From Methanothrix sp. (GTDB lineage: Archaea; Halobacteriota; Methanosarcinia; Methanotrichales; Methanotrichaceae): a stretch of DNA of 44,478 nt. The translations under genes and the position numbers were made by a program. The notes beneath the pieces were generated by a model that saw nothing but the letters and a program-made list of their open reading frames with translations, searched no databases and was not told where the DNA came from. This document shows positions 1,139 through 22,921 of this stretch, piece by piece; the stretch's first letter is position 1; the number at the start of each line of letters is the position of its first letter. Where the stretch lies: assembly GCA_037128175.1 (NCBI GenBank), contig JBAXWY010000021.1, positions 1 through 44,478 of the forward strand, in the 5' to 3' direction.

Positions 1139-2302
1139 TCAAGAGAAAGAGCTCAATGTAGTCTGCCGGGCTTTAAGCAGCTCCTTAAGCAAGTCGCTTT
1201 GCATGATGAATTTTTTTAAAGGCAATTGCAGCTTGCCGCAAATATACCACAAAGCGCTCTTCATATCCTCGAAGGACAAGGCCTTCTCTTGCATGGCATT
1301 TCTCACATTCTCCCTCACGTTAAAGACACCTAACGGCACATATCCCGAATAAGCCTCCCGCAAGATGATCGCACCTGCCTGTTTTTTCTCGCGTGCCAGA
1401 GCCTCCAAGACAGCCATTTTGCAGGAATAGTAGCATCCACCCACCCGGGAATAGCCTTTCTTGCCAACATTTTTCTCATAGTCGGAGAAAACCAGCTCTT
1501 CATTCCCCAGGATGCAGAGGAAGGCCTCCATCCACTCATACTGCCATGACGTGGGTAGGAGAAGGACCGCGTAATAATTGTTGAGGCTGAAAAACTCCCT
1601 CACCTGGCAGCAATCGATGGGGTCATAATCCCTCACCTTTTGCAAAAGCCGGTTTCCAAGGGTGCTGTCACAGGCGGTGATGGACCAGCGTGTGGGAACC
1701 AGGCGGCGTCTTTTCTTGGTACCCATGGTTCCCATGGAGAATGCCTTCTGAATGCTGGAGAAAGGCATGCCCTTTTGGTGCAGATCAACTACAGCGTCCG
1801 CCGCCAGGAGGTCGCCGTCGTAATAGACCTTCTCTAAATTCGGATCCCACCTGGCATTGCTTATTTCCAGCTTTTCCAGAGGCGCACTCGGACCAAAGGG
1901 AGTGTGCTCATCACTAAAGGACATGCCTTTAGGGGCGTGGTGGAACTCGGCTTCACTCTCAATGGAGGAACCGGAGAGGGATATGTCCCGAAGTTTGTCC
2001 AAGTAGCGACCTTGCAGCTGTGTGACTTTGACGGATCTTTTGCCTCTGATCAGGTTTAGCCGGTATCTTATGATCTCCTCCTGGGTCTTCTTTTCCGGTA
2101 TCCATGACTCAGGCCGGTCCATGATGATGGTGTCGCCATGCAGAGGTGCGATCATGGGACCGGCGTAAACCTTAGGGTAGTTCCAGCTCCCAATGAAGAC
2201 GGAAGGAGGAGTGCTGCCATCCAGCTTTGTGCCCACTTCCTGCGAAGGGATATACATATTGGCTGTCAATTTTTTCAGATAGGCTTCCTTGCCTTTGATC
2301 AT
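1139..2302 (-). CDS. Nre family PCNA-interacting DNA repair protein
   Basis: Motifs [45 protein letters not shown] and C-terminal PIP box QTTLSSF. Start re-assigned to MIKGKEAY (ATG 2302). Confidence 0.88.
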
Positions 2303-2439
2303 AATTGAAACGATCCGACAAATTCGAATAAAAGCATAATGGACGCGGGGCGAAAGTGTTTCCCTGACATTTCTCTCCCCGGCCGGCACGGGAACATATT
2401 TACATTCAAAACGCCAATAATTTGTCGAGGTGTCCTCAG

Positions 2440-3174
2440 ATGAAATGGACTGTGATAATAATAGCATTAATGATGCTGCTATGTACCAATGCATTTGGAC
2501 AGATGAACCCCTATTCCACCACCCCAACGGGCGGCGCACCCACACCCAGCACTCCCAGCAGCGCAGAATCGCTGGGGCTGCAAGTGCCAACGGACGTCAC
2601 AGCATCCCAGCAAGCCCCAAGCGCGCAGGAGAGTACGCAAACTCTAATGAGCGCGAGCCAGGATGCAGCTTATGCCTTTGCGCCTACGGGATCAAGGGCC
2701 ACCGCGACCAATCCGGTCTACAGCAAAATGATAATAACCCCCGGAAGCTCCGCGCCCAATAGCCTTTATATCTCATATGCACCACGAACCGTGGCAAGCT
2801 GCAATCTTTATGCCAACCTGCCTTTATGGATGAAGACCTCGGGAACAGGCAATATCTGGTTTTATGAGTGGTATCCGAGCGGCATGCTGGATACTAATTA
2901 TGCAGGATTCGTCAATTACCCGGGCTGGTACAAGAGATGGTTCTCTGCTGATACTCCTGGCTGGCACATCCTCCAGTATTATTGCGGCGGCTGGAGCAAC
3001 TATGTCTACATTTACGTCTCCGGCCCCAGCAGTTATTGGGTCAATCCGAACCCGAGTCCCGATCCTATGCCATATCCGTATCCCTACTGGGACAGCCCGA
3101 TAACCTACACATATCCTCCCACCGGCCATACTTACTACTCTTATCAATGGACCACATCCACGGGAATTGATTAA
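2440..3174 (+). CDS. Secreted protein with Pro/Thr/Ser linker and Tyr/Trp-rich beta domain
   Basis: Signal peptide [20 protein letters not shown], low-complexity linker, aromatic-rich domain WFYEWYP...[19 protein letters not shown]. Confidence 0.75.
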
Positions 3175-3356
3175 GAGGAGTAAATCAACCGAAAACCGGG
3201 AAAATCAGCACCAGTGTAAACCTGTGATTTCCTTCCCCTGCTGGGCCAGGGGAGGACGAACCTTTTTTTGCCGGCCTTCAACCGGCTGGTGTAAAGGGGT
3301 CGATAATTCTCTTGCACAACTCTCGCCCATATTTTTGAGAGCTGTTGCCCGAAAAT

Positions 3357-4280
3357 CTATTTTAATAACATGCACTTCAGCTCTTCTTCGATCGCCTCAT
3401 TCATCTGTGAGCAGTAGCCATGCACGTTGCACCCAACGGTGTGCAATCTCTTTGGCTGCACTCCTCGAGCATAGGTCTGCTCTGCCAATTGATAAGGTAT
3501 GATGGTATCATTACGGGAATGGATCATGACCATTGGGCGAGGTGCGATCATGTAAAGGTAGGTCTCGGGATCGATGGACCGGTAGAATCGGACCAGATTC
3601 TTATCCACTACACCTGCCGAAGCGATTGAGTCATCAGTTCCATAGCCGCAGGTGCTGATGGCCAAAACGCCCTTGGCGGCAAGGTCCAGGGCACAGGCCA
3701 TGATGGCAAAGCGGCCTCCGTTGCTCTCCCCGGCATAGATGATGAGCGTCGGGTCGATCTCGGGCCGGCTGCGCAGTACTTCCCCCGCCGCCAGGGCGTC
3801 ATAAACCATTCTATGCTCCGTGGGCTCAACGCCTTTTAAAAACATCTGTAGATCGGCTTTTGCATCGATTCCCCCCAAATTTCTCTGGTCAAGGGTGATG
3901 CTGGCAAATCCCAGGTCGGCCAGGTACCTGGCCAGCTTCTGCTCCCGCTCTTTGCTAACGGTAGCGCCGGGCAAGAGCACAATGCCGGGAATGCTTCCGG
4001 TCTTTGCATCTCCGCCCAGTTTGGACCATGGGATTCTCAAGAGCGCTGCAATCTTCGCATCACGACTCCTGAACTGGACTGCAGAAAGGGTGCTGTTGCC
4101 GTCATCCTCGGGCGGGCTCAGATTGTATTGGGGCATGGATACTTTGTACTCTAAAATTCCTTTCTCGGATACGGTCCATTGCCCGGCGGATGTGCTATCC
4201 GGAAAAAAATGCCATCCCAAAAAGAGAGCGATGACTCCAACCAGAAGCATCACTGCGGTGCCCTTCCTCTGCTCCAGCAT
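3357..4280 (-). CDS. Membrane-anchored alpha/beta hydrolase
   Basis: N-terminal TM segment, nucleophile elbow GESNGG, HSRNDTIIP (Asp) and VHGY (His). Start probably MLEQRK. Confidence 0.85.
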   Translation of the reverse strand: MLEQRKGTAVMLLVGVIALFLGWHFFPDSTSAGQWTVSEKGILEYKVSMPQYNLSPPEDDGNSTLSAVQFRSRDAKIAALLRIPWSKLGGDAKTGSIPGIVLLPGATVSKEREQKLARYLADLGFASITLDQRNLGGIDAKADLQMFLKGVEPTEHRMVYDALAAGEVLRSRPEIDPTLIIYAGESNGGRFAIMACALDLAAKGVLAISTCGYGTDDSIASAGVVDKNLVRFYRSIDPETYLYMIAPRPMVMIHSRNDTIIPYQLAEQTYARGVQPKRLHTVGCNVHGYCSQMNEAIEEELKCMLLK

Positions 4281-4296
4281 TTTCGAATGCACCACT

Positions 4297-4605
4297 TCAG
4301 ATGGAGGGTTTCCATTGTTCATCGGCCAATTTGGTCAAGGTGCCGTTTTTATTCAATTCATAGCCGATGGGAATTTTTCCCCAGCTCCACAGGCTCGTAG
4401 GTGCGTTGTTGTTTGAGCTGTTTGGCTCTGTTTGGTTGGTTTGATTTTGGGTAATTGTGGCGTTCTCTGATTGGTTGGCTGAATTGTTGGTGAAGTTGGC
4501 CAGGATTGTCATGCCGCTTTCCTGGTTGATCTTAATAGCTTCCAGTGACTGAGAGCTGCATGCCAGTGCAAAAAGGATTAAAGCCGAAATTATCAAATTT
4601 CTCAT
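4297..4605 (-). CDS. Small secreted Asn/Gln/Thr-rich protein
   Basis: Signal peptide, several N-x-S/T sequons, conserved-looking LWSWGKIPIGY tail. Confidence 0.7.
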   Translation of the reverse strand: MRNLIISALILFALACSSQSLEAIKINQESGMTILANFTNNSANQSENATITQNQTNQTEPNSSNNNAPTSLWSWGKIPIGYELNKNGTLTKLADEQWKPSI

Positions 4606-16940: not shown

Positions 16941-18437
16941 GTGGAATTTTCACACTACGCACCCCTCTGGGGAGAAGCGCTACTAACAATCCTGGCAGTG
17001 CTCGTTGTACTGCTGGGATCCCTGATGAAGAACAGCGGCAAGCTCATGGGATACCTGAGCGCAGCCGGGCTGGTGGCAGCTCTGGCGCTGGTGGCCTCCA
17101 ATTTGACCATCAAGCCAACTCTGTTCTTCTTTGATACCATCTCGGTTGATGCCCTGTCTCAGTTCTTCAAGGTCGTCTTCCTGGTAGTATCGCTGCTGGT
17201 AGTAATAGCCTCCATGTCCAAATACACGGGAAAGGGCGCAGACGAGTACTTTGCACTGCTGCTCTTTGCCACCGTGGGCATGATGGTGGTCTCCAGCTCC
17301 GTTGACATCATCACCCTGTTCGTGGGCTTTGAGCTGGCCAGCCTGTCCACCTATGCCCTGGCGGCCTTTGATAGAAGCCGTAAGAACCTGGAAGCGGCCA
17401 TGAAGTATTTCATCTTCGGCTCTGTCGCTTCTGCGTTCATGCTCTTCGGCTTCTCGCTGCTCTACGGCATGGCAGGATCTACTCATCTCGTGGATATCGC
17501 CGCAGCCTCCCTGGCTAACTTTGGCCCGGCAACGCTGGTGGCTTTGCTCTTCGTCATAGTAGGATTTGGCTTCAAGATGGCACTGGTGCCCTTCCATATG
17601 TGGGCCCCGGATACCTACGAGGGCGCACCGCCCCTGGTCTCGGCGCTTCTGGCTGCCGGCTCCAAGAAGATGGGCTTTGTCGCTGCCTTCAGGGTAATTC
17701 TCATTGCCCTGGTGGCTCTGCGCATGGAATGGTACATGGCCTTCGCCATCCTGGCCGCCGTGACCATGACGCTCGGTAACCTTGCGGCCTGCTGGCAAAA
17801 CAATGTGCGGCGCATACTGGCATACTCTTCCATTGCTCAGGCGGGCTACATCGCCATCGCCTTCGTAGTGGTGGGCGCGGCTTATGGAGCTGCTCCGGTT
17901 AATGTGCTGAACATGGGGCAGATTCGAGCCGATCAGTTGGGCATTGCCGGCGCGCTGCTGCTCATCCTGGGACACGCTCTCATGAAGACGGGAGCCTTCA
18001 TCGGCACGGCATTGGTCGCGAGTAATGTGTCCAAGGAAAGCGAAACCGACCCGGATGACATATCCAACTATGCCGGTCTTGCCAAGAGGGCGCCCATAAC
18101 CGCGTTTTGCATGCTCATCTTCATGTTTGCGCTGGCGGGCATACCCCCCACGGCGGGATACATCGGCAAGTTCGTGCTCTTCAGCTCGGCCATTTATTCC
18201 GGTCTGGTCTGGCTGGCAGTGCTGGCCATCCTCAACAGCGCTCTGTCGCTGGTGTACTACCTGAGGATAATCAGCTACATGTACCTCAAGGAAGCAGCCG
18301 GCCCCAAGATCAAAGAGCAGAAAGGATATGTGGTAGCACTCGTCCTGACGCTTTTGGCAGTGGTCTGGATCGGTGTCTTCCCAGAGGCATTCATCAACTG
18401 GGCAATGCAGGCAGCAGCAGTTCTGCTGCCTCAATAA
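16941..18437 (+). CDS. fpoN: Fpo subunit N
   Basis: ELASLSTYAL, EAAMKYF, FKMALVPFHMWAPDTYEGAP, RILAYSSIAQAGY. Confidence 0.96.
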   Translation: MEFSHYAPLWGEALLTILAVLVVLLGSLMKNSGKLMGYLSAAGLVAALALVASNLTIKPTLFFFDTISVDALSQFFKVVFLVVSLLVVIASMSKYTGKGADEYFALLLFATVGMMVVSSSVDIITLFVGFELASLSTYALAAFDRSRKNLEAAMKYFIFGSVASAFMLFGFSLLYGMAGSTHLVDIAAASLANFGPATLVALLFVIVGFGFKMALVPFHMWAPDTYEGAPPLVSALLAAGSKKMGFVAAFRVILIALVALRMEWYMAFAILAAVTMTLGNLAACWQNNVRRILAYSSIAQAGYIAIAFVVVGAAYGAAPVNVLNMGQIRADQLGIAGALLLILGHALMKTGAFIGTALVASNVSKESETDPDDISNYAGLAKRAPITAFCMLIFMFALAGIPPTAGYIGKFVLFSSAIYSGLVWLAVLAILNSALSLVYYLRIISYMYLKEAAGPKIKEQKGYVVALVLTLLAVVWIGVFPEAFINWAMQAAAVLLPQ

Positions 18438-18439
18438 AA

Positions 18440-18460
18440 TTTTTTCGGTTTTTTGGTTTT
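18440..18460 (+). terminator. Oligo-T archaeal terminator of the fpo operon
   Basis: Three consecutive T-tracts immediately after the fpoN stop. Confidence 0.6.
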
Positions 18461-18533: not shown

Positions 18534-18601
18534 GACTTCGCGCCATTCGGGGCTTCCCGCGATATCCTGTGTATCACACGAAGACGCGAAGACGCGAAGT
18601 C
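18534..18601. repeat. Imperfect palindrome with CGAAGACG sub-repeats (REP-like)
   Basis: Terminal arms GACTTCGCG / CGCGAAGTC and internal CACGAAGACGCGAAGACGCGAAG. Confidence 0.65.
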
Positions 18602-18787
18602 TCGACGAGAGTGGGTCAATTCTTACCACATCTTTATGTGATCGAAGGTTTTAGATTATGGTGATGGAGGAAGCTGGAATGGGAAAAAGATCGAAGTTGC
18701 TTACGCCACCAATGGATGTATGTACGACCACATCTTAGGAACTTCCTACGTGGGACGCAGATGCAGTAGTTAACGATCTTCAGCCAT

Positions 18788-18938
18788 AGCGGCAACGCCT
18801 GGCTAACCAAGGGCAACGACGATGGCGACATCGTCCGGCTGCCCTTCCACGTCTTTCCGCAGCCGCACGAGGCCGCCGCCCACACATGCGCGGGGGGGCC
18901 GCACAGGCGTCCACGAGAAGGAATAAATAATTTGTAGT
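18788..18938 (+). repeat. GC-rich TA-array repeat, copy 1
   Basis: CAGCCGCACGAGGCCGCCGCCCACACA...ACGAGAAGGAATAAATAATTTG is shared with copy 3, and CATCGTCCGGC is shared with copy 5. Confidence 0.85.
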
Positions 18939-18968
18939 TCTTCTCGATCGGGGTGGACTGCTCATGGA

Positions 18969-19271
18969 TCAACTTCCTAAAACATCTTCATGCAGTCCGA
19001 AATCAACTATTACGATGCGATTATTATCATAATCGATTCTGTAACGAATGACCCAATGGTCCTTAAGGTGAACTTCTCTATCCCCAGCTTTATCATGACT
19101 GAGGGGTTTACCGCATTCTGGCTCACGGCAAAGCTTTTCGAGTCTCTTTTCGATCTGTCTTTCCAGCCCTTTGCCTTTCTTCTTGGCATCGGATAAAAGC
19201 TTACCAACCGATTTAGGGATAAACAGGTCAAAAGGCGTCTTCGTTTTGCCAAGAGGAATAAACCTTAACAT
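18969..19271 (-). CDS. RelE/ParE family toxin
   Basis: 100-aa basic protein with LCREPECGKPL..DKAGDREVHL..WVIRYRID....IVIVDFGLHEDV RelE-type pattern. Confidence 0.85.
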   Translation of the reverse strand: MLRFIPLGKTKTPFDLFIPKSVGKLLSDAKKKGKGLERQIEKRLEKLCREPECGKPLSHDKAGDREVHLKDHWVIRYRIDYDNNRIVIVDFGLHEDVLGS

Positions 19272-19274
19272 ATT

Positions 19275-19466
19275 TCAAATCTTTTCTAGATAATCTTTTA
19301 ATCCCTCAGATGAGGTAATAAGCGTACCTTCCCCGCGCAAGTATTCCTCCCAGGCCGCGTTTGTTCTAGCCAAAGCGACTGGATCTCGGATTAAAGCCCG
19401 GTCTGTCTTCTTTTTCCTGGAGAAACGATGAATCATTGCCCGAACCCAAGATATGTTAATAGTCAT
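19275..19466 (-). CDS. Putative cognate antitoxin
   Basis: Small ORF 3 bp upstream of the toxin; AWEEYLRGEG...SSEGLKDYLEKI resembles RelB-type C-termini. Confidence 0.7.
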   Translation of the reverse strand: MTINISWVRAMIHRFSRKKKTDRALIRDPVALARTNAAWEEYLRGEGTLITSSEGLKDYLEKI

Positions 19467-19609
19467 CTGAAGCTCCTTCTATCACAAATGTAATAAACTC
19501 CCTAGGATTATAAGTTTTCCTGTCGAATGATCGATGGCCACGCTCGTCCCTCTGCTCGGCTAGGCGGACTAGCCCGCTCCCGCTCGCCCTGCTTTCTGGG
19601 GCACACAGA

Positions 19610-19660
19610 CGCGCCCCCGGCGGGCCTCCGCTGCCCAGCCCCCACAACGCCCGCACGGCA
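19610..19660 (+). repeat. GC-rich TA-array repeat, copy 2
   Basis: CGCGCCCCCGGCGGGCCTCCGCTGCCCAG; core 14-mer GGCCTCCGCTGCCC at 19623. Confidence 0.85.
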
Positions 19661-19747
19661 ACCTGCAAGACCTCATCAGATTAAAGAGAGGCCAGACGGC
19701 CCGCCTATTTTATCTATCTGAATGCGGAAAGATAGGACTGTGATCTC

Positions 19748-19963
19748 ATGTTCGTTCTAACTGCGGTGATTCACAAGGAAGAGGAAATGTACATCGCTGA
19801 GTGTCCTGAGGTTGGGACAGTGAGCCAGGGTTTTACTGTGGAAGAGGCCGTAGCCAATCTTAAGGAGGCTACGGAACTTTACCTTGAGGAGTTTCCCTTG
19901 GAAGGAGAACTCAAGATGGCTTTTGTGACAACCTTCGAGGTGCCACAGGTTGCCAAGACTTAA
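19748..19963 (+). CDS. hicB: HicB family antitoxin
   Basis: AVIHKEEEMYIAECPEVGTVSQGFTVEEAVANLKEATELYLE is a canonical HicB domain. Confidence 0.93.
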   Translation: MFVLTAVIHKEEEMYIAECPEVGTVSQGFTVEEAVANLKEATELYLEEFPLEGELKMAFVTTFEVPQVAKT

Positions 19964-20181
19964 GGATTGTCTCTGGAGAAGATACAATCAAGATTCTCTG
20001 CAACAAATTCGGATTCGATATATCCGGTAGCTCCAAAAGTCACATTCGGCTCTCAAAGATGACTTCAGAGGGAAAGGTAGGAACAGTTGTGCCAAAGCAC
20101 CCCGAACTGAAGATAGGCACATTAAAGGGCATTTTGAAGCAGGCCAGAGTGGACCCGAAGGATTTTGCGGAATTTCTATAA
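19950..20181 (+). pseudogene. hicA: HicA family toxin, start codon out of frame with the body
   Basis: Body 19960-20181 reads LRIVSGEDTIKILCNKFGF...SHIRL...VVPKHPELKIGTLKGILKQA with no in-frame ATG/GTG/TTG at its 5' end. TTG 19950 (after SD GAGGTG, giving MPRL) needs a +1 shift. Confidence 0.85.
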
Positions 20182-20234
20182 CTTCAATTCAGGGCAAAAA
20201 AATCGACTTCAGTACGAGAACTCAGCCTCCCAGT

Positions 20235-20350
20235 GCCCCGGCGGGCCTCCGCTGCCCAGACCCCGCACAGCCGCACGAGGCCGCCGCCCACACACGCGCG
20301 CGGGCGGGGGTCGCACGGGCATCTACGAGAAGGAATAAATAATTTGCAGT
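20235..20350 (+). repeat. GC-rich TA-array repeat, copy 3
   Basis: Core 14-mer at 20244; the 3' about 80 bp is nearly identical to copy 1. Confidence 0.9.
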
Positions 20351-20392
20351 GCATCTCTTGATATCAGTGATTGGATCACGGGGACAAAGAGC

Positions 20393-20683
20393 TTGAATAT
20401 TTATAGCAAATTACAGGAGAGCCGTGCGGAGATATTAGCCATCGCTGCCAAGCATGGAGCCTACAACGTCCGCATCTTTGGCTCAGTAGCCAGACATGAG
20501 GCCGATTCGGCCAGCGACCTTGACCTGCTGGTGGAGATGGAGCCCGAAAGGAGCCTTCTCGATCTGGGTGGACTGCTCATGGATCTTCAGGAGCTTCTAG
20601 GTTGCCGGGTTGATGTCGTGACCGAGAAGGGGCTGCGCGGACGTATCCGGGAGCGCGTCCTCAAAGAGGCTAGGGCGTTATGA
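20393..20683 (+). CDS. mntA: Minimal nucleotidyltransferase (MNT) antitoxin
   Basis: [19 protein letters not shown] (GS-x10-DxD) and [13 protein letters not shown]. Confidence 0.92.
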
Positions 20684-21027
20684 GAGATGACAGAGAATGG
20701 TTGCTGGATATCCTGGAAGCAATAGAGAGAATTGAGAAGTATTCTTCCCGAGGCAGACAGACTTTTGAGGAAGACGAATTGATCCAGAACTGGATAGTGC
20801 ACCAGCTACAGATAATTGGCGAAGCTCTCCGCTCAATATCTGACGATTTTAGGATAGAGCACGACGATATTCCCTGGAAGGAGACCATTGGTATGAGAAA
20901 TATCCTGGTCCACCGCTATTTTGATCTGGATACGGATCTGGTCTGGAAGGCAGTAATCAGAGATCTGCCTTATCTGAAAGAAAAAGTAAGATCCGTCTTA
21001 GAAGAATATGACAAAACATCTTCTTGA
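20680..21027 (+). CDS. hepT: HEPN (DUF86) RNase toxin
   Basis: [23 protein letters not shown] (R-x4-H plus Tyr); 4-bp overlap with the MNT gene. Confidence 0.92.
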
Positions 21028-21081
21028 AAACTGTCTGATTGGCTTATTCCTTTCAGGTACCGGGCCCTTGCGAGCGAGCCC

Positions 21082-21160
21082 CGCGCCCCGGCTGGCCTCC
21101 GCTGCCCGGACCACGCACAGCCGCCCGGAGTCGGGGCTGTGGTCAGGAGGAGGCAGCGGA
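21082..21160 (+). repeat. GC-rich TA-array repeat, copy 4 (hairpin)
   Basis: Core 14-mer at 21094; TCCGCTGCC (21098-21106) is complementary to GGCAGCGGA (21152-21160). Confidence 0.85.
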
Positions 21161-21219
21161 TTGTCAGTCCAAAGATTCATATCCAACCATCAGCATAATA
21201 GTAAGAGAGGCATACTAGC

Positions 21220-21372
21220 ATGGCACGGCCAATTGAATTAGGCTTAATCCTGGAAGGCGAAGATGCAGAAGAGTTCTTAGAGGATATCAGGAACCCCAAA
21301 AAACCCACAAAGGAGCAGATGGAGATGTTTCGGGAAGCCATCCGGATATACAAAGAGCATCCTGCTTCATGA
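21220..21372 (+). CDS. 50-aa putative antitoxin of the GNAT toxin
   Basis: Manual translation MARPIELGLILEGEDAEEFLEDIRNPKKPTKEQMEMFREAIRIYKEHPAS resembles the toxin-binding C-terminus of DUF1778/TacA. ATGA overlap with the GNAT start. Not in the ORF track. Confidence 0.8.
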   Translation: MARPIELGLILEGEDAEEFLEDIRNPKKPTKEQMEMFREAIRIYKEHPAS

Positions 21373-21916
21373 AGCTCTTTCCTATCGATCAGCTTCGGGT
21401 AGAATATTTAAGAGAAAGTCATAACATCTCGTTTTTTAGTTGCAGCAATGGCGACCTGAATGATTCTTGAAGAGTGATGCAAAGAAATCCCAGGAGGATC
21501 TGATAAGCAGGACATATTTGTGTCTTTGGCAAGACAGCATACTGGGCTACCTGACGCTTGTCACGGACACGATTGAAGTCAAGCTGATAGAAAAAGATGA
21601 TGGCGTGGATGGCTATCCCTATCCCAGATATCCCTCCATAAAAATTGCCAGGTTGGCTGTTGAGGAAAAGTTTGAGGGATGTGGCATAGGGCGCTTTCTG
21701 TTGTTTTGGGCTACTGGTAAGGTTTACCAGTTGTCTAACGAGGTCGGATGCAGGTACATAACCCTGGACTCGAAACGCGAATCTCTTGGTTTTTATGAAA
21801 ATTTCGGGTTTAAGGTGATAATGAAATATGCAAGCCGCAACTTTCCGCCCATGTACCTCAACATGTATCCAATTGTCTTGCAGATGCGGCAAGAAGATTC
21901 TGAGAGTGTGGTGTGA
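21369..21916 (+). pseudogene. GNAT acetyltransferase toxin (TacT/AtaT-like), frameshifted
   Basis: MKLFPIDQ...FSCSNGDLND then a stop. Adding one T at about 21465 restores DLNDFLKSDA and joins to YPSIKIARLAVEEKFEGCGIGRFLL...LGFYENFGF. Confidence 0.85.
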
Positions 21917-22060
21917 TGTCCTGCTGCTCAAGCTCGATGCCGACGGCAACATCGTCCGGCAGTCCAGCCGGGGCGCATGCGAGAACGCGCCCCAGCGGGC
22001 CTCCGCTGCCCGGCCCACGCACAGCCGCACGAGGGCAGCCGCCCAGACACACGTCAGCCC
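21915..22060 (+). repeat. GC-rich TA-array repeat, copy 5
   Basis: Core 14-mer at 21998; GCTGCCC (22005-22011) is complementary to GGGCAGC (22033-22039). Confidence 0.88.
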
Positions 22061-22158
22061 GCCCTGACAAGCTGCGTTAGCCCAGGCTGGGCCCACGAGC
22101 GGCTGTCTAAACCATGCGAAGAAAAAGTCTATATCTCATCGAAGATTATATTTCTTTG

Positions 22159-22194
22159 ATGTTTGCAGAATATATTCAGGCTGCACTGGATAGC
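22159..22194 (+). pseudogene. Truncated HicB-like antitoxin start
   Basis: MFAEYIQAALD resembles the N-terminus of a HicB subfamily; similarity ends after about 11 codons. Confidence 0.5.
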
Positions 22195-22268
22195 AGCGCA
22201 TCTGGCGTCGGGCTACCCTGTCCCTCCTCTTCGACTATCCAAAGTACTATGCCAAAGCTAAGAAGAAG

Positions 22269-22424
22269 AATCGATCACTCAATGCAAGCATGGTAATCAG
22301 AACCCTCGGACTAAGGGGGATAGCCTGTGGAGAACCGACCTTTGGCTTGGGCCAGACTGCCCGGGTAAGAGTCGGTTAGTCGAAGTAAGAAAGCCCCATC
22401 CTTTAGGGGTGGGGAGGAAGTCAC
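22269..22424 (+). mobile_element. tnpB: IS200/IS605 remnant: tnpB 3' tip, omega-RNA scaffold region and right end
   Basis: 22269-22379 translates NRSLNASMVIRTLGLRGIACGE (TnpB DRDxNAAxNI...ACGE tail). It is followed by the hairpin AAGCCCCATCCTTTAGGGGTGGGG and terminal AGGAAGTCAC. Confidence 0.85.
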
Positions 22425-22426
22425 CG

Positions 22427-22921
22427 ATGAGTGTGCATAGCGGCGGAATTCTCTTATTCAGGATAAAAGACAAAAGGCTCGAGGTGTTGCTTGTCCATCC
22501 GGGTGGCCCTTTTTGGTCCGGAAAAGATAATGGTGCCTGGTCGATACCCAAAGGGGCATTTGAAGGGCAGGAAAGCCCACTCGAAGCCGCTAAAAGGGAA
22601 TTCAAAGAGGAAACCGGCTCTGAGGTTACAGGACGGTTCACAAATCTTGGCACAATAAGGCAGCCCAGCAAAAAGATTGTGCACGTGTGGGCACATCAAT
22701 CTGATTTAGATGTGGCTTTTGCCACTAGCAATAAATTCACCATGGAATGGCCGAGAAAATCAGGAATCATAAGAGAATTTCCAGAGGTCGATAAAGCCGA
22801 ATGGTTTGATATTGAGATAGCCAGGAAAAAGATCCTGAAAGGGCAAGCCGGTTTTATTGATAGACTTCTGGGTGCGATCAATTATGGGCCAAAAAAAGAA
22901 GCTATTAGAGGGCCTTCTTGA
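22427..22921 (+). CDS. NUDIX hydrolase
   Basis: LLVHPGGPFW, WSIPKG, Nudix box GAFEGQESPLEAAKREFKEETG, FPEVDKAEWF. Confidence 0.92.
   Translation: MSVHSGGILLFRIKDKRLEVLLVHPGGPFWSGKDNGAWSIPKGAFEGQESPLEAAKREFKEETGSEVTGRFTNLGTIRQPSKKIVHVWAHQSDLDVAFATSNKFTMEWPRKSGIIREFPEVDKAEWFDIEIARKKILKGQAGFIDRLLGAINYGPKKEAIRGPS

Follow-up and report, generated by a model that had tools for sequence, protein, structure and literature searches.

Toxin–antitoxin cassettes joined by a conserved junction repeat in Methanothrix: a possible integron-like platform without an integron integrase

Integrons are the textbook bacterial route for stockpiling and reshuffling small genes, and to our knowledge archaeal integrons are known only from metagenome bins, and only through bacterial IntI and attC models. 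Here we analyse a contig of the methanogen Methanothrix sp. (JBAXWY010000021.1 of assembly GCA_037128175.1; 44,478 nt, the whole of which we call the window) in which unrelated toxin–antitoxin (TA) modules alternate with a GC-rich junction repeat. An earlier note, made from the sequence alone, had described this array and proposed either repeat-mediated capture or shuffling of cassettes or a repeated RNA element. We find that related genomes have gained, lost and reordered the cassettes, with exchanges at or near a short core of the repeat, which may point to an integron-like platform. Archaeal integrons were found with IntI and attC models by Ghaly et al. 2022 (PMC9668308), and that paper's data S1 lists one metagenome-assembled genome (MAG) of this family, of the genus Fen-7, with two attCs and no IntI, and nothing for Methanothrix. 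A full-text literature search (integrons and Archaea, Methanothrix/Methanosaeta, archaeal TA cassettes) returned no paper on such repeats or arrays in the genus.

The closest described architecture is that of sedentary chromosomal integrons and of clusters of attC sites lacking integron integrases (CALINs), such as the Vibrio superintegron with its VCR attC sites and the archaeal integrons of PMC9668308. As in these, small co-oriented cassettes are each followed by a species-specific repeat of ~100 nt, the content is TA-rich and varies between strains, the same cassette is found at different positions, and an adjacent integrase is often missing. The Methanothrix arrays differ in having no IntI over the cut-off in 59 genomes of the genus, no R''/R' boxes and no supported hairpin. 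The exchange point lies in the middle of the repeat, so that each cassette has one arm at each end, and cassettes have their own 5' regions; moreover, the arrays are found at three fixed places on the chromosome, and a solitary repeat can occupy any of these. Pairs of RYYYAAC and GTTRRRY boxes 40–130 nt apart were not found on either strand of the window, and the five junctions contain one single box. A canonical integron was rejected on the lack of box pairs and of IntI, which agrees with the reservation of the earlier note.

Other recombinase-less modules offer partial parallels. Beside the integrative and conjugative elements (ICEs) of streptococci, integrase-less cis-mobilizable elements (CIMEs) accrete in tandem at an attachment site. 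The Methanothrix units resemble them as head-to-tail units without a recombinase, with direct repeats of a core, hybrid arms and a plain site when empty; they differ in their small size (0.6–1 kb), in carrying a TA pair only, in a target that is neither a tRNA gene nor the 3' end of a gene, and in that we found no partner element with an integrase at the sites or in their vicinity. The pdif modules of Acinetobacter plasmids are Xer-dependent and often carry TA or resistance genes. They too are small and discrete, are in many cases TA pairs with short conserved sites as boundaries, occur in varying combinations and lack a recombinase gene of their own. However, pdif sites are 28-bp XerC/XerD sites that alternate in orientation and reside on plasmids, whereas the sites described here are direct, GC-rich, ~100 nt long and located on an archaeal chromosome. 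IS200/IS605 insertion sequences (ISs) and palindrome-associated transposable elements (PATEs) share direct ends without inverted terminal repeats or target duplication, and Y1 transposase and tnpB genes are present in this genome. In contrast to such elements, the repeat has no similarity to IS ends, a solitary copy of core plus M arm marks the empty sites, and the copy number is very low.

In the window, five GC-rich islands (60–70% GC) interrupt ~3.9 kb of lower-GC modules between an fpoN/nuoN-like gene and a NUDIX hydrolase gene. All five repeats (18808–22101) lie on the plus strand with one module per interval; this arrangement, and the order of the genes, had been read from the sequence before and were borne out by Pfam, NCBIfam and repeat searches. 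The 14-mer GGCCTCCGCTGCCC noticed at that time is indeed exact at 19623, 20244, 21094 and 21998. Allowing up to two mismatches, it matches five times in the whole window compared with 0.57 expected, a number reached in none of 100 shuffles, and the 2.96-Mb genome has one additional exact copy in unrelated sequence on contig C77. Repeats 1 and 3, read earlier as sharing about 80 bp, have 90 nt in common at 85.6% identity.

We aligned the five window copies, followed by a wider set from related genomes that comprised 36 of the 40 distinct copies, the four left out being M-deleted or atypical. Four parts can be told apart. L is an optional module of 50–100 nt that begins directly after the upstream stop codon. 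The C-left arm (~45 nt, consensus GCGCCCCGGCGGGCCTCCGCTGCCCGG) holds the 14-mer, occurs only at cassette 3' ends and is often preceded by L; the sole small palindrome that we read in it is CRGCGG-GCCT-CCGCTG, to be compared with Xer/dif-type sites, in which 28 bp comprise two inverted binding arms and a 6–8-bp spacer. The core of ~16 nt has the consensus CACAGCCGCAYGARGC. The M arm (~40 nt) has GC-rich flanks, GCCGCCGCC on the left and GGGCGGGG on the right of the alternating tract CACACGCGCGCG, and its end is near CGCACGG. Among the 36 copies, no block is better conserved than core plus M. Within M, conservation is highest in the alternating purine–pyrimidine tract CACACGCGCGCG (window 20288–20302, and the same block in the 36 copies), a Z-DNA-prone type of sequence; a role of this tract in recombination is speculation. 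The start of the L module (window 21929–21960, likewise at loci L005, L012 and L011) reads K-L-D-A-D-G-N-I-V in one frame, which we take to resemble the N-terminal motif of AbrB/SpoVT-type antitoxins and which could be the relic of a gene start.

The window copies represent several states of this unit. Repeat 1 (18808–18925, plus strand; nhmmer E 9e-16, model match 18821–18927, repeat families D5, D3 and D2) is a short form with L-start, core and M arm, lacking the C-left arm and its 14-mer. Repeat 2 (19520–19665, plus; family D1, nhmmer) has a long L module and a C-left arm with 14-mer, and its M arm is deleted. The most complete copy is repeat 3 (20213–20339, plus; nhmmer E 1.8e-21, covariance-model E 2.1e-24), with C-left arm, core CACAGCCGCACGAGGC and M arm. 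Repeat 4 (21068–21132, plus; nhmmer, alignment of five contexts and model match) retains C-left arm and core; its M arm was deleted between short (8-nt) direct repeats, GCACGAGG and GCACGAAG, and the 5' module proper to the following cassette begins at ~21120. Repeat 5 (21929–22101, plus; families D1 and D5, nhmmer and model match) combines L-start, a C-left arm with 14-mer and a core variant with another GC-rich 3' module, which it has in common with two segments of the related genome G012.

For repeat counts we used a sequence-only covariance model built from the 36 copies. This genome has seven matches at three loci, and an iterated nhmmer profile gave strong copies only in the array, on contig C22 (two) and on contig C42 (one). 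The model detected the repeat in 21 of the 59 Methanothrix genomes, with one to seven matches per positive genome, and BLAST with repeat 3 in 17 of the 59. When genomes were drawn from across the class, the model matched 10 of 30 from this genus and, by one weak match, one sister genus, and there was no match in 71 genomes of the other four families. The repeat is thus low-copy and lineage-specific; genome-wide scatter, which would have spoken against the earlier proposal, is not observed. A miniature inverted-repeat transposable element or other dispersed intergenic repeat was rejected on the seven matches at three loci, the co-orientation of copies within arrays and the failure to find inverted termini. 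Three kinds of site carry the repeat: the region 3' of fpoN (hotspot 1), the interval between an Ogt gene and a PhoU-like gene (hotspot 2), and places near HIT, MFS or DUF4258 genes. A pattern scan of metagenomes gave nine loci, namely two on the window's own contig, one on an unrelated contig of 72% GC and six related arrays. A viral origin was rejected, since two repeat motifs had no match in viral contigs. The exact core pattern, searched across the genus, occurs at the known array loci only, with no copies at attachment sites elsewhere. The copy on C42 (G000:C42:17227–17365) is solitary and partly deleted, with a Fic-like gene on one side and a 130-aa minus-strand gene on the other; the 3' region of the latter gene comes after the last repeat of the fpoN array in G051 and G049, and this sequence arrangement suggests that an earlier rearrangement had its breakpoint within the array.

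The content of hotspot 1 varies among relatives. The order is ParE, HicBA, MNT/HepT, GNAT in this genome; a HicA remnant, ParE, GNAT in G051; TIR, PIN, ParE in G049; HNH, GNAT in G016; and a deleted MNT/HepT followed by HicBA on metagenome contig L075. Orders also vary in G013 and G065. In G012, the closest relative, flanks 97–98% identical to those of the window enclose 3.1 kb in which the genes are quite different and one repeat can be recognised. A secreted NosD-like beta-helix protein, a 114-aa open reading frame (ORF), GC-rich segments and HicB/HicA-like remnants there replace the four TA modules (L011, G012:C1:632500–638500, positions 1582–4460). The GNAT, MNT/HepT, HicBA and PIN cassettes occur at hotspot 1 as well as hotspot 2 in different genomes.

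We also compared the window with assembled contigs of four metagenome runs at ≥88% likeness, where uncovered stretches carry no meaning. Contigs of run X10, from an abundant related strain (depth ~450), join repeat 2 to repeat 3 while skipping HicBA, place MNT after GNAT and contain an MNT–ParE fusion of the G051 type. These joints are fixed alternative orders in the related strain and not excision products. Together, relatives and metagenome contigs display gain, loss and reordering of cassettes, their presence at a second locus and breakpoints inside the repeat, as the idea of shuffling at the repeats had predicted.

The boundaries of cassette-specific sequence always lie inside the repeat, around the ~16-nt core. 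In all five contexts compared, the sequence proper to the GNAT cassette has one and the same starting point just behind the core or M arm and extends into L/C-left, where it ends; the same boundaries hold for HicBA and MNT (two contexts each) and ParE (three contexts). The identity of C-left tracks the upstream cassette and that of M the downstream cassette, in sets of eight and nine non-independent pairs taken from 32 of the 40 junctions. A single-cassette difference is visible on C22 of this genome, where Ogt, a junction, the TumE cassette, a second junction and PhoU follow each other; contig G051:C33 has an additional HicBA cassette after the first junction, and the left and right homologies between the two contigs overlap in the 16-nt core only. 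In the leftmost junctions the repeat sequence begins sharply at a CACAGCC motif, and the distal array end retains a copy of core plus M beside the flank.

Hotspot 2 also exists without cassettes. We read 11 of 12 fetched sites directly and G050 from other alignments. Between the same flanks, one short-form repeat without any cassette is present in G067, G074 and G015, whereas G024, G042, G005, G043 and G023 have neither repeat nor cassette. Just the last ~45 nt of HepT remain in G049 and G021, and a C-left stub remains in G011. These comparisons place exchanges at or near the core and show that solitary sites exist.

By raw count, uncorrected for a genome-wide background rate, at least one TA-family match is present in 16 of the 22 intervals bounded by two adjacent repeats; the remaining six hold only ORFs without family matches. 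The types found in intervals are ParE, HicA, MNT with or without HepT, GNAT, TumE, PIN with an AF2212-like partner and DUF4258 with a YgiT/MqsA-type finger. Of type II/VII TA families, the window itself has ParE_toxin, HicA_toxin, NTP_transf_2 with HepT-like, and GNAT, together with two antitoxin ORFs without family match, while TumE, PIN/AF2212-like and DUF4258/MqsA-like modules come from relatives. At least seven types of unrelated modules share one junction of ~100 nt, always oriented alike. Further cargo near the arrays comprises a histidine kinase, an HNH nuclease, a NosD-like beta-helix protein and a TIR protein of the CAP12 type.

We favour, at a probability of roughly 0.45, the reading of the array as an integron-like platform on which cassettes recombine at the core of the repeat by means of an enzyme other than IntI. 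The more specific proposal, namely a novel site-specific platform for TA and defence cassettes in methanogenic archaea, built on a ~16-nt core within a ~100-nt GC-rich junction and served by a non-integron enzyme, is on balance unlikely. A cassette would comprise an M arm, its own 5' (promoter) region and the gene pair, and would close with the C-left arm and core that come next. If two cores recombined, one of them belonging to a cassette that is free or acts as donor and the other to the array or to a solitary chromosomal site, cassettes could be inserted, excised or reordered; repeats that stand alone in the chromosome would serve as landing pads, and the TA modules would hold the array in place. 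The exchange would be site-specific, with a circular intermediate and a recombinase acting in trans. Candidates for the enzyme of a novel platform would be a new recombinase family, an integrase borne by a virus or plasmid and acting in trans, or a host factor that exploits the Z-DNA-prone CACACGCGCGCG tract. No candidate recombinase was found in our searches, so the gene may be on a virus or plasmid, may belong to an unrecognised family or may have been lost. In the last case the array would be sedentary and would now change mainly by short-homology deletion.

A number of results weigh against an integron-like platform. The best IntI (TIGR02249) score was 40.7 bits in this genome and 65.1 bits over the 59 genomes of the genus, compared with a cut-off of 265, and none of the 59 exceeded it. 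Serine recombinases were not found in this genome. Its two full-length tyrosine recombinases are distributed independently of the repeat, one being present in 12 of 21 repeat-positive versus 23 of 38 negative genomes and the other in 9 of 21 versus 16 of 38. No recombinase gene lay within 1.5–8 kb of the arrays and solitary copies examined in relatives and metagenome contigs; these neighbourhood scans covered 94 of 169, 70 of 110 and 36 of 45 candidate ORFs. Nor did the metagenome contigs contain a circular form or within-population excision, the joints being present at the full depth of the related strain. The difference between C22 and G051:C33 is equally explicable as a deletion between 16-nt direct repeats. 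Nor is conservation of the core strict, with the exact degenerate 16-mer at only 10 places in 5 of the 59 genomes, and the M arm is gone from window repeats 2 and 4. Repeat loci number only ~3 per genome and are orthologous among genomes, which fits vertical inheritance with local recombination. Finally, the frames shared by the GNAT and TumE cassettes (a ~75-nt 5' module and the long L module around unrelated genes), together with a nested ParE pair, imply that gene content can change without exchange at the core.

Nor did we find evidence for a folded recombination site of the attC kind, which forms an imperfect hairpin with extrahelical bases. Single-stranded DNA folds of the five copies on both strands had z-scores of −2.2 to +1.9, within the range of dinucleotide shuffles. 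RNAalifold detected no consensus pairs among the 36 copies. Covariation of hand-drawn hairpins, a test valid for the M stem only, was below the shuffled mean, and 485 of 500 shuffles reached the overall score. The M stem is paired in 82% of cells; every change in it affects one side alone, and most give G-U on the plus strand (13 cells versus 0 double changes). The description of the repeat as structured, with structure retained between copies, was therefore not upheld. Repeats 4 and 5 do fold into long but differing hairpins, and the pairing of the GCTGCC core with different downstream arms suggested for these copies does exist, but it does not go beyond chance.

Neighbourhood scans, genome searches and co-occurrence thus failed to reveal a dedicated enzyme of the kind that a capture system would call for. 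The ORFs of the window beside the array include no tyrosine recombinase. The genome encodes two full-length tyrosine recombinases, neither near an array and one of them at a contig end. The other (G000:C7:3657–9297, L018) lies beside a 988-aa ORF and small ORFs in what looks like an integrated element unrelated to the arrays. At the metagenome-scan loci, the ORFs scanned contained no recombinase save one IS66 fragment.

The main rival explanation, to which we give a somewhat lower likelihood than to the favoured reading, dispenses with a dedicated system. It holds that the repeat is an inherited intergenic sequence kept alike by gene conversion, that homologous recombination, short-homology deletion and exchange between strains shuffle the units, and that TA pairs enter old cassettes by illegitimate insertion and later erase the old content. 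The ParE pair visibly nested in an MNT cassette, the 5' and long L modules that the GNAT and TumE cassettes share around unrelated genes, the M arm lost between 8-nt direct repeats and the mere remnants at hotspot 2 (the HepT 3' end in G049 and G021, the C-left stub in G011) are what such processes would leave behind. A recombinase that is neither nearby nor co-occurring with the repeat, and a low-copy repeat at orthologous loci confined to one clade, fit as well. However, one junction of ~100 nt in one orientation serves at least seven unrelated module types, and re-use of a frame is shown for two cassette-type pairs only. Conservation peaks at core plus M instead of decaying evenly, and the tracking of the upstream cassette by C-left and of the downstream cassette by M points to exchange at one point. 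The HicBA difference shares just 16 nt at its crossover, and solitary repeats are located exactly at the array positions of other genomes. The data fit an integron-like platform with a central core, but they do not prove site-specificity.

Three further explanations appear much less probable. One, quite improbable in our judgement, regards the repeat as a functional RNA or cis-regulatory element (a processing site, 3'-end element or shared upstream operator) with recombination as a side effect. Its orientation relative to the cassettes is fixed, core plus M lies ~60–150 nt upstream of the AT-rich promoter-like region of each cassette, and the one-sided changes of the M stem lead mostly to G-U pairs on the plus strand (13 versus 0 double changes); on the other hand, the element is absent or half-deleted at repeats 2 and 4 while the neighbouring genes are intact, there is no consensus structure, the fold energies are within the shuffled range and covariation stays below the shuffled mean (485/500). 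A search of Rfam returned no match at E ≤1 and one sub-threshold chance match to an unrelated long non-coding RNA family, and the RNA element offered as an alternative in the earlier note thus gained no support. We consider it very improbable that the cassettes are passenger-carrying, PATE-like derivatives of IS200/IS605 elements, moved as single strands by a Y1 HUH transposase in trans, with the C-left hairpin as right end and the hairpin of core plus M as left end. Y1 HUH transposases are encoded by four to five genes of this genome, which also has many copies of IS605 tnpB, the ends are directly oriented without terminal inverted repeats or target duplication, and the repeat starts sharply at CACAGCC in the leftmost junctions. 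The two small palindromes are ~27–28 nt apart, presumably near the sum of the end-to-hairpin distances of IS608. Yet the repeat resembles no IS end in the genome and occupies just three loci, the hairpins lack statistical support, and core plus M at distal array ends and cassette-free sites fits a chromosomal attachment site better than the ends of a cut-and-paste element. Least probable of all, with very little likelihood, is the remnant of a canonical integron (a CALIN) with highly diverged attC sites. It would account for the architecture, the TA-rich content and the one reverse-oriented TA module, as reverse-oriented TA modules are common in sedentary chromosomal integrons. CALINs have been reported in Archaea (PMC9668308). 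Against it stand the absence of box pairs from the window and of IntI over the cut-off from all 59 genomes, a crossover that is central in the repeat and not at its 3' end and, in PMC9668308, a screen of 6718 archaeal genomes in which a MAG of the genus Fen-7, with its two attCs, is the only one listed for this family.

The array is flanked on the left by the fpoN/nuoN-like membrane subunit gene (16941–18437, plus; Pfam Proton_antipo_M, E 1.5e-64), which forms the left flank of hotspot 1. Its 3' end is kept in all 24 same-genus genomes drawn, and homology to relatives ends at ~18444–18451. Just 3' of fpoN, ~95 nt (18537–18630) are 84% identical to G000:C10:41608–41699 and match several places in G001, G016 and G008; this stretch holds a short GAAGACGC tandem and may be another small dispersed element. 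Repeat 1 is followed by a remnant of the 5' region of an MNT cassette (18926–18970, plus; repeat family D6, alignment with G051 and a contig joint 20553->18939 in run X10), which includes 31 nt of MNT coding sequence (18940–18970) 97% identical to 20555–20585.

The first module is a ParE/RelE-family toxin gene of 100 aa (18969–19271, minus; Pfam ParE_toxin, E 3.8e-7, with the NCBIfam YafQ and RelE subfamilies both below cut-off) and a presumed cognate antitoxin of 63 aa (19275–19466, minus). The latter ORF has no Pfam or NCBIfam match and is kept beside the toxin in G049 and G051. The pair is reversed inside a former MNT cassette, of which G051 (L059:4225–5224) retains the MNT promoter and N-terminal half and the window the 31 nt mentioned above. 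It is because of this reverse insertion that the ParE module alone is on the minus strand.

The second module consists of a HicB-like antitoxin gene of 71 aa (19748–19963, plus; Pfam HicB_lk_antitox, E 8.4e-4, below cut-off), identified also by its synteny with HicA, and a frameshifted HicA toxin gene (19966–20181, plus; Pfam HicA_toxin, E 6.6e-12). The same pair is present in G051:C33. The HicA 5' end has one extra base (indel at 19963) compared with G051 and run X10, and no ATG, GTG or TTG start precedes 20059. The third module, MNT, an MntA-like nucleotidyltransferase (20393–20683, plus; Pfam NTP_transf_2, E 1.9e-12), with the HEPN RNase HepT (20680–21027, plus; Pfam HepT-like, E 1.7e-28), is a type VII TA pair (20393–21027); the NCBIfam MntA and HepT matches are below cut-off.

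The fourth module pairs a 50-aa ORF, the presumed antitoxin (21220–21372, plus; no Pfam or NCBIfam match), with a toxin-like GNAT acetyltransferase gene (21372–21916, plus; Pfam Acetyltransf_7/10/1). The small ORF is ~100% conserved beside the GNAT gene in G016, G013, G020 and G051. The GNAT frame is broken near 21463 by a 1-nt deletion; relatives have an intact ORF of 182 aa, and run X10 has a T after 21463. HicA (19960–19970) and GNAT (21460–21470) are thus each frameshifted by 1 nt relative to G051, G016, G013 and the metagenome strain, and their partner genes are intact. From these reading frames, the toxins of the two pairs appear to decay first.

The fifth module had been read as a HicB stub. 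The truncated ORF exists (22114–22228, plus), but it has no Pfam or NCBIfam match, and its likeness to HicB presumably amounts to an N-terminal motif; in G012, HicB/HicA-like remnants occupy the same place. The ORF is truncated because an internally deleted IS200/IS605-family tnpB 3' end with ~150 nt of 3' flank (22229–22425, plus) forms the right border of the array. The remnant was recognised by alignment with G000:C68, relative to which ~402 nt are deleted and whose ORF matches Pfam OrfB_IS605 and Cas12f1-like_TNB. Its 3' flank is possibly a guide-RNA or right-end region. The same 145-nt IS605 piece lies at several contig ends of this assembly (C8, C61, C88 and C68) and in many relatives, and it probably breaks the assemblies. 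We rejected the end of a known IS as a source of the junction repeat, in line with the result that iterated nhmmer finds the array loci and no other copies; the remnant at 22229–22425 is a different, unrelated sequence. On the right, the NUDIX hydrolase gene (22409–22921, plus; Pfam NUDIX, E 3.3e-15) is a flank kept in this genome and G012, and this side is 98% identical to G012 from ~22243 on.

Taken together, an abundant lineage of methanogens exhibits integron-like behaviour without the defining parts of an integron: stacks of TA modules that vary between strains at fixed positions, cassettes that different sites have in common, and landing sites that stand empty. Should there be a dedicated enzyme, this would be a new system of recombination, one that might become a tool in a genus where genetic manipulation is difficult. 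If there is none, the arrays would be a clear natural case of a short conserved repeat and selfish TA modules imitating an integron, which would bear on how CALIN-like arrays elsewhere are interpreted.

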